A DNA stretch of 10,914 nucleotides from a virus (IMGVR_UViG_3300010283_000213:1-10914); one strand, 5' to 3'. Counted from the first letter of the stretch, positions 2,050 to 9,862 are shown. The notes: a model not told the origin generated them from the letters alone. Translations and numbers: made by a program.

Positions 2050-2174
2050 TGCGGGTTATGCGGGTTATCCTGTGTATAAGTGAATTAACTGTATGAATAA
2101 AAAGGAAATCAATAACCCGCACGTAACCCGCAAAACGGCAGTTATAACCCGCAAAAGTGCGATTATAACCCGCA
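2050..2174. repeat. Iteron-type replication origin (cluster 1): 2 tandem TGCGGGTTAT-type repeats (2050-2068), an AT-rich spacer, then 4 inverted copies (A/G)TAACCCGCA at 2112, 2123, 2144, 2165
   Basis: Directly read: 9-10 bp repeats in opposite orientations flanking an AT-rich stretch (2069-2111); downstream copies spaced 11, 21 and 21 bp; located immediately 3' of the primase/helicase gene. Confidence 0.7.
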
Positions 2175-2926: not shown

Positions 2927-2935
2927 AGCGATAAA

Positions 2936-2963
2936 GGCCCGGATTTTTCCCGGGTCTTTTTTT
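2936..2963 (+). terminator. Candidate rho-independent terminator after the replication/ssb operon
   Basis: GC stem CCCGG (2938-2942) / CCGGG (2950-2954) with 7-nt loop, followed by TCTTTTTTT (2955-2963). Confidence 0.55.
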
Positions 2964-3023
2964 CAGGTTTTGTAAATTATTTGTTCGTGGTTGTTTCTGG
3001 CTGTTCAGTGATTCTGGCTGATA

Positions 3024-3051
3024 TTTACATACTGATTTTTATGTATATGTT
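3024..3051 (+). promoter_or_regulatory. Candidate sigma70-type promoter for the head/packaging operon (-35 TTTACA, 16-bp spacer, -10 TATGTT)
   Basis: Hexamer match only; sits in the 274-bp intergenic region upstream of the capsid gene. An activator-dependent promoter nearer the 15-bp direct repeats at 3098-3132 is equally possible. Confidence 0.25.
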
Positions 3052-3097
3052 GGCGTGTGGCACTCAGACGTGAGCCGCCACAATGCCGCCTGACCCC

Positions 3098-3132
3098 CTG
3101 CGCGATGCCGGGTTGATCTGCGAGATGCCGAG
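3098..3132. promoter_or_regulatory. Tandem 15-bp direct repeats CTGCG(C/A)GATGCCG(G/A)G spaced 20 bp apart, upstream of the capsid gene: candidate regulator binding sites
   Basis: Read directly: 3098-3112 and 3118-3132 (13/15 identical); a third ATGCCG at 3083-3088 about 22 bp upstream. Confidence 0.35.
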
Positions 3133-3200
3133 AGTGTCGGGCGGCGCTCCCTCCGTGTTGGTTTCACGTCCTGAATCTTAACCAATACGAGAAAACCTTC

Positions 3201-4370
3201 ATGAAGAAATTAATCGAACTCCGCCAGCAAAAAACCGCCCTGAAAAACCAGATGCGATCCCTGCTGGAAAAAGCCGACAGTGAAAACCGCAGCCTGAACG
3301 ATGACGAGGGCAAACAGTTTGATGAACTGCGTGCAAAAGCCGACTCCCTCGACACAGAAATTTCCCGCCTCGAGTCTGTGGCTGATGAAGAACGCAGCAA
3401 GCCAGGAACGGGCATCCAGAAATTATCATCTGATGAATTGCGTAACTACATCGTAACCGGAGATGTGCGATCACTGTCCACCAGCACTGACAGCGGCAGG
3501 GATGGCGGATATACCGTAATTCCTGAGCTCGATCGCGAAGTCATGCGCCAGCTACAGGATGACAGTGTTATGCGCGTGATCGCGACCGTGAAGACTGCAA
3601 AATCAAATGAGTTTCAGAAACTGGTTTCCACTGGCGGCGCAACTGTAGGACGAGGCACAGAAGGCAGCGCACGCAGTGAAACCAACACCCCGAAAATTGA
3701 ACGCGTAACCATCAAGCTGAATCCGATCTACGCCTACCCGAAAACCACGCAGGAAATCCTTGATTTTTCAGAGGTGGATATTCTGGGCTGGTTATCCTCC
3801 GAAATTGCCGACACGTTCGCCAGCACCGAAGAGGATGATTTTGTTAATGGCGACGGTAACGGCAAGCCGAAAGGCTTCATGGCTTACACCCGTGCGGCGA
3901 CCAGTGACAAAACCCGCGCTTTTGGCACCATTGAAAAAATGGTAGCGGCAAGTGGAACCGCCATTACAGCGGACGAACTGATCGACATTCTCTACAAGCT
4001 GAAAGCGAAATACCGCAAAAATGCCGTCTGGGTGATGAACTCGGGCACGGCAGGGACACTACAGAAGCTGAAAAATGAGAACGGCGATTATATCTGGCGC
4101 GACAGCCTTAAAGAAGGTGCGCCGGATATGTTGCTTGGTCGTCCTGTTTACTGCCTGGAGTCCATGCCGGACATCGGCGCAGGAAAAGCACCGCTAGCGG
4201 TTGGCGATTTCAGTCGTGGTTATTTCATCGTTGATCATGTAACAGGGATTCGCACCCGACCGGACAACATTACTGAACCCGGATTCTACAAGGTCCACAC
4301 GGATAAATATCTGGGCGGTGGTGTGGTGGATTCAAACGCCATCAAAATTCTGGAAATGAAAGCTGGCTAG
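3201..4370 (+). CDS. Major capsid protein, HK97 fold, with N-terminal coiled-coil scaffold (delta) domain
   Basis: 389 aa; N-terminal ~70 aa strongly charged with heptad-like pattern (MKKLIELRQQKTALKNQMRSLLEKA...), as in HK97-type capsid proteins with fused scaffold; followed by prohead protease and portal genes. Confidence 0.85.
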   Translation: MKKLIELRQQKTALKNQMRSLLEKADSENRSLNDDEGKQFDELRAKADSLDTEISRLESVADEERSKPGTGIQKLSSDELRNYIVTGDVRSLSTSTDSGRDGGYTVIPELDREVMRQLQDDSVMRVIATVKTAKSNEFQKLVSTGGATVGRGTEGSARSETNTPKIERVTIKLNPIYAYPKTTQEILDFSEVDILGWLSSEIADTFASTEEDDFVNGDGNGKPKGFMAYTRAATSDKTRAFGTIEKMVAASGTAITADELIDILYKLKAKYRKNAVWVMNSGTAGTLQKLKNENGDYIWRDSLKEGAPDMLLGRPVYCLESMPDIGAGKAPLAVGDFSRGYFIVDHVTGIRTRPDNITEPGFYKVHTDKYLGGGVVDSNAIKILEMKAG

Positions 4371-4382
4371 TCATGAGTAAGG

Positions 4383-4405
4383 AGGAGGCTGCGGCCTCCT
4401 TTTTC
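4383..4405 (+). terminator. Candidate intrinsic terminator/attenuator immediately after the major capsid gene
   Basis: Perfect 7-bp stem AGGAGGC (4383-4389) / GCCTCCT (4394-4400), 4-nt loop TGCG, then TTTTC. Confidence 0.55.
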
Positions 4406-7105: not shown

Positions 7106-7180
7106 GGCCGTCAGAGGGGGTGGGGGTGGTTTTCAGGACGAAACCGTCCCTGCCGGACACCGACCGCCCCCTCAAATTTT
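7106..7180. promoter_or_regulatory. GC-rich inverted-repeat element between HNH and terS: candidate cos/packaging recognition region
   Basis: GAGGGGGTGGGGGTGG (7114-7129) facing CCGACCGCCCCCTC (7160-7173), with inner palindromes GGACG..CGTCC and GTCC..GGAC (7135-7159); position HNH-[site]-terS matches where cos lies in HNH-terminase phages. Confidence 0.3.
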
Positions 7181-7224
7181 TGTGCACGGTAATTTTTTTG
7201 AAAATAATTGGGCGAAAAAAGAAC

Positions 7225-9708: not shown

Positions 9709-9862
9709 TGCGGGTTATTTGGGGGTGGTTGCGGGTTATTTTGAATGGCTTGCGGGTTACGATTTGGCTAACATTTGAACGTGTCATTTTTCAACGCATT
9801 GATATTAAATAATAAAAAATACTTAGCACGCGAAGATAACCCGCTAACCCGCATAACCCGCA
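9709..9862. repeat. Second iteron cluster (ori- or crr-like): 3 direct TGCGGGTTA(T/C) at exact 21-bp phasing (9709, 9730, 9751), a ~75-bp AT-rich spacer, then 3 inverted TAACCCGC copies (9836-9862)
   Basis: Same iteron sequence as cluster 1 at 2050-2174; followed by (TA)5 at 9882-9891; no ORF of convincing coding character spans it. Confidence 0.7.

Follow-up and report, generated by a model that had tools for sequence, protein, structure and literature searches.

The 274-bp gap in front of the capsid gene of the element studied here is probably the control region of a capsid/packaging operon carried by a capsid-forming phage satellite. Its parts would be a terminator, a conserved box with phased units, a promoter and a structured leader that acts post-transcriptionally. 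What is conserved above all in the gap is an RNA structure, and this was absent from the interpretation given in the initial annotation of this DNA. That annotation had measured the gap correctly (2927-3200) and had regarded it as regulatory for the capsid/packaging operon, and this view is upheld. The DNA sites to which it had attributed the regulation are a different matter and are discussed below.

The window, by which the whole analysed stretch of 10,914 nt is meant, showed a 100% match to E. coli KSC9 (NZ_CP018323.1). It represents a phage satellite of this strain, of the kind known as capsid-forming PICIs (cf-PICIs). In KSC9, an island of ~15 kb is located between gcd and hpt, and the window spans most of it. 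The island encodes an integrase, an HTH regulator, Icd-like genes, a DUF927 primase-replicase, an SSB and an 82-aa ORF, together with an HK97-type major capsid protein, a prohead protease, a portal, a connector, an HNH protein, a P27-family TerS and TerL. Because the gene set and its order are those of the cf-PICIs (bioRxiv 10.1101/2022.09.08.507074), the window was assigned to this group. The gap follows the replication-module operon, which is composed of pri-rep, ssb and orf82, and precedes the capsid ATG at 3201. For the comparison, 160 loci encoding capsid relatives (59-100% identity) were taken from GTDB genomes and IMG/VR. The compared region was the 420 nt 5' of each capsid start, and 141 distinct sequences were obtained.

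The structured leader RNA is encoded on the + strand from ~3057 and extends over ~145 nt. It is built from a hairpin P1, a long hairpin P2, a pyrimidine-rich linker and a helix P3. Its structure, conservation, strand and restriction to cf-PICI capsid genes were computed in this analysis. A common leader layout was found in 85 of the 141 distinct capsid upstream regions, and these come from Enterobacterales. The hosts are E. coli, Leclercia, Enterobacter, Kluyvera, Pluralibacter, Citrobacter, Rahnella, Kosakonia, Pantoea, Erwinia, Pectobacterium, Serratia, Rosenbergiella and some Xenorhabdus, and Klebsiella-type elements carry the leader as well. The layout starts with a -10-like block, CATGTATATCTT, which reads TATGTATATGTT in the window. 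Five nucleotides after this block there is an almost invariant 25-mer, GTGGCACTCAGACGTGAGCCGCCAC. It is followed by a segment of 45-75 nt whose sequence is specific to each lineage and which forms a hairpin in every case, and then by a C/U-rich stretch. The last part is the near-invariant GGTTTCACGTC...ACG(A)GAAACC, after which the capsid ATG comes.

The consensus structure obtained with RNAalifold on 34 representatives contained P1, P2 and P3, and 13 of its 28 pairs showed double changes. A covariance model was built from the same 34 representatives. It found exactly one copy per element, always 5' of the capsid gene, and no other match in the window. Across 94 distinct leaders, 97.3% of the cells pair, and double changes are seen in 14 pairs (204 cells). 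None of 500 column shuffles reached any of the five covariation measures. When the 3' partners were slid by 1-3 columns as a control, 33-56% of the cells were paired. In the helices, G·U is found 49 times and A·C 9 times, and folding is better for the + strand than for the - strand. The excess of G·U over A·C indicates an RNA of the + strand, contrary to what a DNA palindrome predicts. This bias and the conserved promoter directly upstream are both in agreement with a structure in the sense-strand RNA, the transcription of which is predicted.

P1, P2 and P3 are all present in the minimum free energy (MFE) folds of four divergent types, and extension at the 5' side does not refold the leader. 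The MFE of the whole leader in the window has a z of -1.64, which is not significantly better than that of shuffles. The leader is non-coding: a closed ORF started by ATG is missing from 76 of 119 distinct leaders, and the lengths of the leaders show no preference for any residue class modulo 3. A leader peptide was thus rejected; the 32-codon ORF at 3084-3182 exists only in the window subtype. Many cf-PICIs of Xenorhabdus and Pasteurellaceae are devoid of the leader, and the leader is therefore not essential for the expression of the operon.

P1 (3057-3081, + strand) is a two-part hairpin, GUGGC-A-CUCA-GACG-UGAG-CC-GCCAC, and is predicted to be 5'-terminal. Across genera, 122 of 142 distinct sequences carry it unchanged, and it is found in the MFE fold of every type that was folded. 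Covariation is seen at three pairs, two of which change from G-C to A-U and one from A-U to C-G; the variants are GUGAC/GUCAC, AUGGC/GCCAU and CUCC/GGAG. The invariance of P1 would fit equally well with a DNA operator or with an RNA bound by a protein or by RNA polymerase. P2 (3085-3145, + strand) is long and variable, and its base stem pairs 3085-3094 with 3136-3145. All nine pairs of this stem are changed on both sides across the 94 leaders, and each of the 100 distinct versions of P2 forms a hairpin. Three forms of the apical part are found, namely a three-way junction, a single inner hairpin and a plain hairpin. The tip of the commonest (main) subtype is the three-way junction with two small hairpins, P2a and P2b, for example GCUGCGAGAAGUAGC and CUGCGAGAUGCAG. 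These have GNGAN pentaloops on covarying stems (CUGC/GCAG, CUGA/UCAG, CGGA/UCCG). Other subtypes contain one inner hairpin flanked by U-rich loops, and in L003 and L215 P2 is a plain hairpin of 13 bp with a bare tip. Since some subtypes have no apical modules, the tip of P2 is dispensable for the common role of the family. The linker GCUCCCUCCGUGUU (3146-3159, + strand) is single-stranded and pyrimidine-rich. Neither the consensus structure nor the MFE folds pair it, and a C/U-rich linker of variable sequence is found in all types. It may serve as a ribosome standby site.

With this structure in hand, the direct repeats of the gap can be assigned. The initial annotation had listed a 9-bp pair, two 15-bp copies at 20-bp spacing and a further ATGCCG, and had read them as sites on one face of the DNA helix for a dimeric activator or repressor. 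The repeats themselves exist. The 9-bp repeat TTCTGGCTG occurs at 2995-3003 and 3012-3020. The 15-mers are CTGCGCGATGCCGGG at 3098-3112 and CTGCGAGATGCCGAG at 3118-3132, identical at 13 of 15 positions and spaced as described. The third ATGCCG lies at 3083-3088, where the 5' strand of P2 begins. The spacing of the 15-mers equals two helical turns, which favours the reading as DNA sites. When the 274-bp gap was shuffled 500 times with its dinucleotides preserved, repeats matching at 13/15 positions or more appeared in 4% of the shuffles (p≈0.04), so the 15-bp pair is marginally non-random. An exact repeat of at least 9 nt appeared in 11.8% of the same shuffles (p≈0.12 for the TTCTGGCTG pair, which is therefore unremarkable). 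Both pairs are thus of modest significance.

The position and the evolution of the repeats speak against DNA sites. The 15-mers are found 47-81 nt downstream of the conserved -10 (3046-3051), at ~+41 to +75 of the predicted transcript, whereas an operator is expected upstream of the promoter or overlapping it. They make up the apical part of P2 (3098-3132, + strand). In most relatives their sequence is replaced wholesale while the base pairing is kept, which is the opposite of a conserved site sequence. They are limited to the window-type subfamily and are missing from the plain-hairpin variants. The TTCTGGCTG pair is strain-specific. Its first copy is absent in most near-identical E. coli relatives, where TTGTTCCAGGTTGTTCGGTGATTCTGGCTG is found instead, and the pair arises from a few substitutions in the lineage of this strain. 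Neither repeat pair is conserved. The fold of the P2 tip is poorly defined in the window, and the CUGCG(C/A)GAUGCC units there can be recognised as the counterparts of P2a and P2b. The overall result indicated that the phased 15-bp repeats are two small hairpins within the leader RNA and not protein-binding DNA sites. That the 15-mers and the TTCTGGCTG pair bind a dimeric regulator is accordingly considered very improbable.

Part of the idea of phased activator sites survives at other coordinates, between the replication module and the promoter. The replication-module operon is ended by an intrinsic terminator on the + strand (2933-2963), with a stem of 2933-2942 paired to 2950-2959 and a T run after it. 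It folds at -15.9 kcal/mol (z = -2.95), and its stem shows compensatory changes in relatives from CCCGG/CCGGG to CCTGG/CCAGG. The weak Rfam matches in the gap fall only at 2930-2964 and correspond to the terminator ends of sRNA models. The terminator is followed by the conserved box TTTTGTAAATTA (2968-2979), the core of which is TTTTGTAAAT (2968-2977). The TTTTGTAAAT box is located 87-88 bp 5' of P1 in 129 of 132 distinct upstream regions. It marks the left boundary of the packaging module, and nothing to its left is common among relatives. It is also kept in the leaderless relatives of Xenorhabdus and Pasteurellaceae, and it occurs a single time in the 24-kb element.

Phased TGTT(C/T) units start at 2982, 2992 and 3002 (span 2982-3006). 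In the window, TGT(T/A) forms an exact 10-bp series with 2972 (TGTAA of the box), 2982, 2992, 3002 and 3022 (at the -35). Among 65 distinct promoters of the same flavour, TGT[TA] peaks at -86, -75, -55, -35 and -15 relative to P1, and the first four of these positions are occupied in 51-94% of the promoters. The related pattern T[GT]T[TA][CA] gives an extra peak at -65 in 60% of them. A second flavour of promoter has T(A/T)C at -74, -64 and -54 and no recognisable -35, in the place of which there is a terminator-like hairpin. The conserved TGTT units, which are repeated with a phase of 10-11 bp and reach the -35, are thus reasonable candidate activator sites as judged from their sequence. The 15-mers and the TTCTGGCTG pair are not these sites. 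The arrangement resembles PhoB boxes, OmpR sites and the TTGC-N6-TTGC of lambda CII, in that TGTT(C/T) recurs every 10-11 bp from -86 to -35 and the last unit overlaps the -35, as in activator-dependent promoters with phased direct repeats. However, the sequence of the unit is unlike any of them. The phased TGTT motif was not found at the alpA-like promoter region of the element. Inspection by eye of the control region gave no convincing match to a LexA box, a σ54 promoter, the P2 Ogr-type TGT-N12-ACA, ops or boxA. The AlpA binding element of P. aeruginosa, GGGACG-N5-GGTA (PMC7969949), was not seen by eye either.

The promoter candidate of the initial annotation is present and is conserved in relatives. 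It is σ70-like (3024-3051, + strand) and consists of a -35 TTTACA (3024-3029), a 16-nt spacer and a -10 TATGTT (3046-3051). Promoter-like matches expected by chance in the interval amount to 0.8, and one was observed; it is the only + strand match in the first 9 kb of the window. The register of the -35 and -10 is conserved, with a family consensus of TgTTTAC...ATGTATATcTT. From the position of the -10, transcription is predicted to start at ~3057-3059, and P1 would therefore be a hairpin at the very 5' end of the transcript.

At the other end of the leader, P3 (3160-3169 with 3187-3196, + strand) encloses the ribosome-binding region GAGAAAA (3189-3195) before the capsid ATG. In the 94 leaders, 98% of the P3 cells pair; the variation is mainly from U-A to U-G, and there is one double change. 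In three other types this region, ACGGAAACC as against the GAGAAAA of the window, is unpaired with a probability of ~0.00-0.01. In the window the region is predicted to be partly buried. It is partly open because a window-specific alternative, P3' (3154-3163 with 3180-3189, + strand), competes. In silico, then, the ribosome-binding region of the capsid gene is held in a helix.

Another helix of 8 bp can be formed on the + strand between 3067-3074 (GACGUGAG, the loop and 3' arm of P1) and 3163-3170 (UUCACGUC, the 5' strand of P3), possibly as a pseudoknot. It pairs in 94 of 94 leaders, with G·U in three sequences. In eight sequences of two subtypes a U of P1 is changed to G, and its partner in P1 and its partner in the P3 strand are both changed from A to C. 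This covariation is essentially one substitution event, with an estimated p≈0.04, and to enforce the helix costs ~4-4.5 kcal/mol. A scan of IMG/VR with GGTTTCBCGTC...GAAAC for further variants of the helix returned almost only chance matches, and the one variant among them was already known. Since P3 and the alternative helix are nearly invariant, covariation says little about both. The 11-nt GGUUUCACGUC does not vary between genera, whereas P2 drifts. If the same nucleotides took part in two pairings that exclude each other, this would also explain why two segments are frozen during this drift. The findings are suggestive of a switch, in which the alternative helix would open a ribosome-binding site that P3 otherwise closes.

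The most likely function of the leader is post-transcriptional control of capsid translation and of mRNA stability. From the arrangement described above, we infer where transcription starts, that translation is controlled, that the leader may switch and that an activator may act at the TGTT units. The terminator would close the replication module, and the box and phased TGTT units would lead into the σ70-like promoter. The transcript from ~3057 would open with the structured leader, in which P3 would hold translation initiation low by default. The 5'-terminal P1 would shield the mRNA end; a hairpin at the 5' terminus is a classical means of mRNA-end protection. If P1 is melted or bound by a factor, its loop could pair with the 5' strand of P3, and the ribosome-binding site may open. 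Leaders that sequester the ribosome-binding site, such as riboswitch platforms, RNA thermometers and standby-site leaders, are similar in several respects. They too are conserved structured 5' UTRs with a terminal helix on the ribosome-binding region, a competing helix that could free this region and a single-stranded tract beside the closed site. They differ in that the cf-PICI leader is found only before satellite capsid genes and matches none of 4227 Rfam families. In addition, its invariant part is a small 5' hairpin and not a large aptamer core.

In a stronger form of this proposal, the leader would be a bistable device made of RNA that only capsid-forming satellites possess. P1 and GGUUUCACGUC would each be under two exclusive pairings and probably also under the constraint of a conserved host machine or a helper-phage factor. 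We regard this form as speculative and rather doubtful. If it is true, the host machine would be RNA polymerase or the ribosome, and the satellite would itself time the production of its capsid. The leader would then either switch translation in response to a signal, in a new way, or act on RNA polymerase as put does, and it would be the first RNA-level regulator described for any PICI.

Another explanation is that nothing switches. P1 would be a mere 5' stabiliser hairpin of the ompA type, and P2 and P3 would be passive elements that fix the level of translation. P1 begins 0-2 nt from the predicted 5' end, as the E. coli ompA-type stabilisers do within ~2 nt, the MFE fold is stable and independent of context, and the evidence for the alternative helix is thin. 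In ompA-type stabilisers, however, structure suffices, while P1 is invariant in sequence. Invariance of the 25-nt sequence or of the 11-nt GGUUUCACGUC across genera would be needless for a generic stabiliser, and the change in the P1 loop was accompanied by changes in its stem partner and in the P3 strand. A leader without any switching is therefore judged unlikely. The leader could also act on RNA polymerase in the manner of HK022 put, or recruit an N-like helper factor through boxB-like pentaloop hairpins, and so make the 7.5-kb operon resistant to termination. Like putL (PMC9378689), it has two stem-loops directly after the promoter: the pair formed by P1 and P2 begins at the predicted +1, with 3 nt between the two. 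In putL/putR, the two stem-loops likewise stand at the transcript start of a phage-type operon, and the first stem has an internal loop. P1 is invariant across genera while the satellite proteins fall to 60-76% identity, which suggests a conserved host partner, plausible for put and for the cf-PICI leader alike. A conserved intrinsic terminator follows the capsid gene (~4379-4405), within the operon. As in lambda nut, the main subtype has hairpins of 4-6 bp with pentaloops of the G-N-G/R-A type, here the GNGAN loops of P2a and P2b, in the leader of an operon with an internal terminator. Several observations are in conflict with this mode of action. No similarity in sequence or model to known elements was detected in Rfam or in 50,697 phage records outside those derived from cf-PICIs, and the leader has no sequence similarity to putL/putR. 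Both stems of put contact RNA polymerase, whereas P2 is freely variable, and the cf-PICI leader has a third helix that pairs with the ribosome-binding site. Compared with nut, no boxA-like sequence was seen by eye in the leader, its hairpins form part of the end of a larger helix and are missing in whole subtypes, and their loop sequences are unlike known boxB. The terminator after the capsid gene is present equally in the leaderless relatives, so that read-through is independent of the leader and antitermination is not needed there. Resistance to termination by either route is thus judged quite unlikely, and post-transcriptional control of the capsid message is preferred.

The gap could also be taken for the replication origin or for a cos/pac packaging site of the satellite. 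Superficially, repeats, an AT-rich stretch (3021-3051) and more repeats follow each other downstream of the replication genes. The origin of PICIs has been described as an AT-rich region that lies downstream of pri-rep with a set of iterons on each side (PMC6092414). Such an origin was located at 2050-2174, directly 3' of the primase gene and 900 bp upstream of the gap, which itself lies beyond ssb and orf82. It contains two copies of TGCGGGTTA (2050-2067), an AT-rich stretch and four copies of TAACCCGCA (2112-2174) at 21-bp spacing. The two repeat sets of the gap, on the other hand, bear no relation to one another and are not kept in relatives. The cos site was approached through LR881103, a linear cf-PICI record that was sequenced as 'phage vB_KppS-Ant'. 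It starts 22 nt before terS, and its end, ...GGTTTTCAGGAC, aligns to the window at ~7138 in the gap between HNH and terS. If the record ends are taken as virion ends, the cos site is most likely there. Both roles were thus rejected for the capsid gap, which can hardly be an origin or a packaging site.

Structured cis-regulatory 5' leaders are well known as a kind, and the present family and its association with satellite capsids appear to be undescribed. The bioRxiv report on cf-PICIs (10.1101/2022.09.08.507074) and its successor (10.1101/2025.02.11.637232) mention no promoter, transcription start or leader of the capsid/packaging operon. Neither the P1 sequence nor transcription data on cf-PICIs were found in the papers searched. 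A search of the whole window against Rfam 15 gave no match at E ≤ 1, and only terminator-type and chance matches at E ≤ 10. Among the phage records, the P1 region was found in only three, all of which contain cf-PICI sequence. The leader would add an undescribed RNA family to annotation resources, and it could serve as a sequence marker for the cf-PICI family. Together with the promoter and its phased repeats, it offers a concrete and mutable handle on the control of the capsid operon.

When ORFs were clustered over 128 loci to look for a satellite gene that accompanies the leader, the associations between genes and leader simply tracked phylogeny, that is, Enterobacterales versus Xenorhabdus/Pasteurellaceae. 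In a scan of IMG/VR with the core pattern, 138 of 142 matches precede a capsid start of the form MKKL(L/I)ELR. Of 5426 complete E. coli genomes, 153 contain the window-type leader, in as many as 5 copies in a single genome; strain 042 is among them. The main-type leader is present in a further small set.

The gap between the primase and ssb genes carries, at window 2050-2174, repeats flanking an AT-rich stretch. In its left part, TGCGGGTTA occurs twice at 2050-2067 and is followed by the AT-rich stretch, while the right part holds four copies of the inverted iteron TAACCCGCA at 2112-2174, with spacings of 11 and 21 bp. Judged by sequence, this layout is that of a textbook PICI replication origin. 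Three further copies of TGCGGGTTA were found at 9709-9717, 9730-9738 and 9751-9759, spaced at exactly 21 bp. They are located past terL and orf96, close to the right end of the island and distant from the origin. This group of iterons could be a second initiator-binding cluster, serving copy control, handcuffing or as a second origin.

A candidate cos site was located at 7106-7224, in the gap between the HNH and terS genes, with its junction at ~7138. The ends of LR881103, a linear cf-PICI record sequenced as 'phage vB_KppS-Ant', align exactly at this junction. The G-rich GGGGGTGGGGGTGGTTTTCAGGAC region of the gap is likely the cos site.

Directly 3' of the capsid stop codon, there is an intrinsic terminator-like hairpin, AAGGAGGAGGC-UGCG-GCCUCCUUUUU (4379-4405), which was not picked up by a simple terminator scan. 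It is kept in relatives both with and without the structured capsid leader, and their versions have compensatory stem changes and UUCG-type loops. The hairpin probably sets the ratio of capsid to downstream genes.

On the upstream side, the control region is adjoined by the 82-aa ORF (2678-2926), which belongs to phrog_1957 (unknown function) and had no match in Pfam. From gene position alone, it would suit as a candidate late regulator. A 24-nt inverted repeat with 71% complementarity has its arms in the terminator T-run region (2944-2967) and in capsid codons 8-16 (3224-3247). The arms are paired in MFE folds of read-through-length transcripts. This repeat may be due to chance.

Two relatives from Photorhabdus and Xenorhabdus (L063 and L065) carry a leader of another type, ~150 nt long, at ~170 nt before the capsid start. 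Because its GACGU...ACGUC hairpin and clear intrinsic terminator, GCGGUGGUU...ACCGUUUUUUU, precede the capsid gene, the sequence suggests an attenuator-type leader at the position matching that of the window family. The cf-PICI leader and capsid start were also observed in PQ569648.1 (Klebsiella phage P12620-1, 106.5 kb), at ~102,100-102,330, near one end. Either the assembly of this record is chimeric, or a satellite was packaged or assembled together with a large phage genome.
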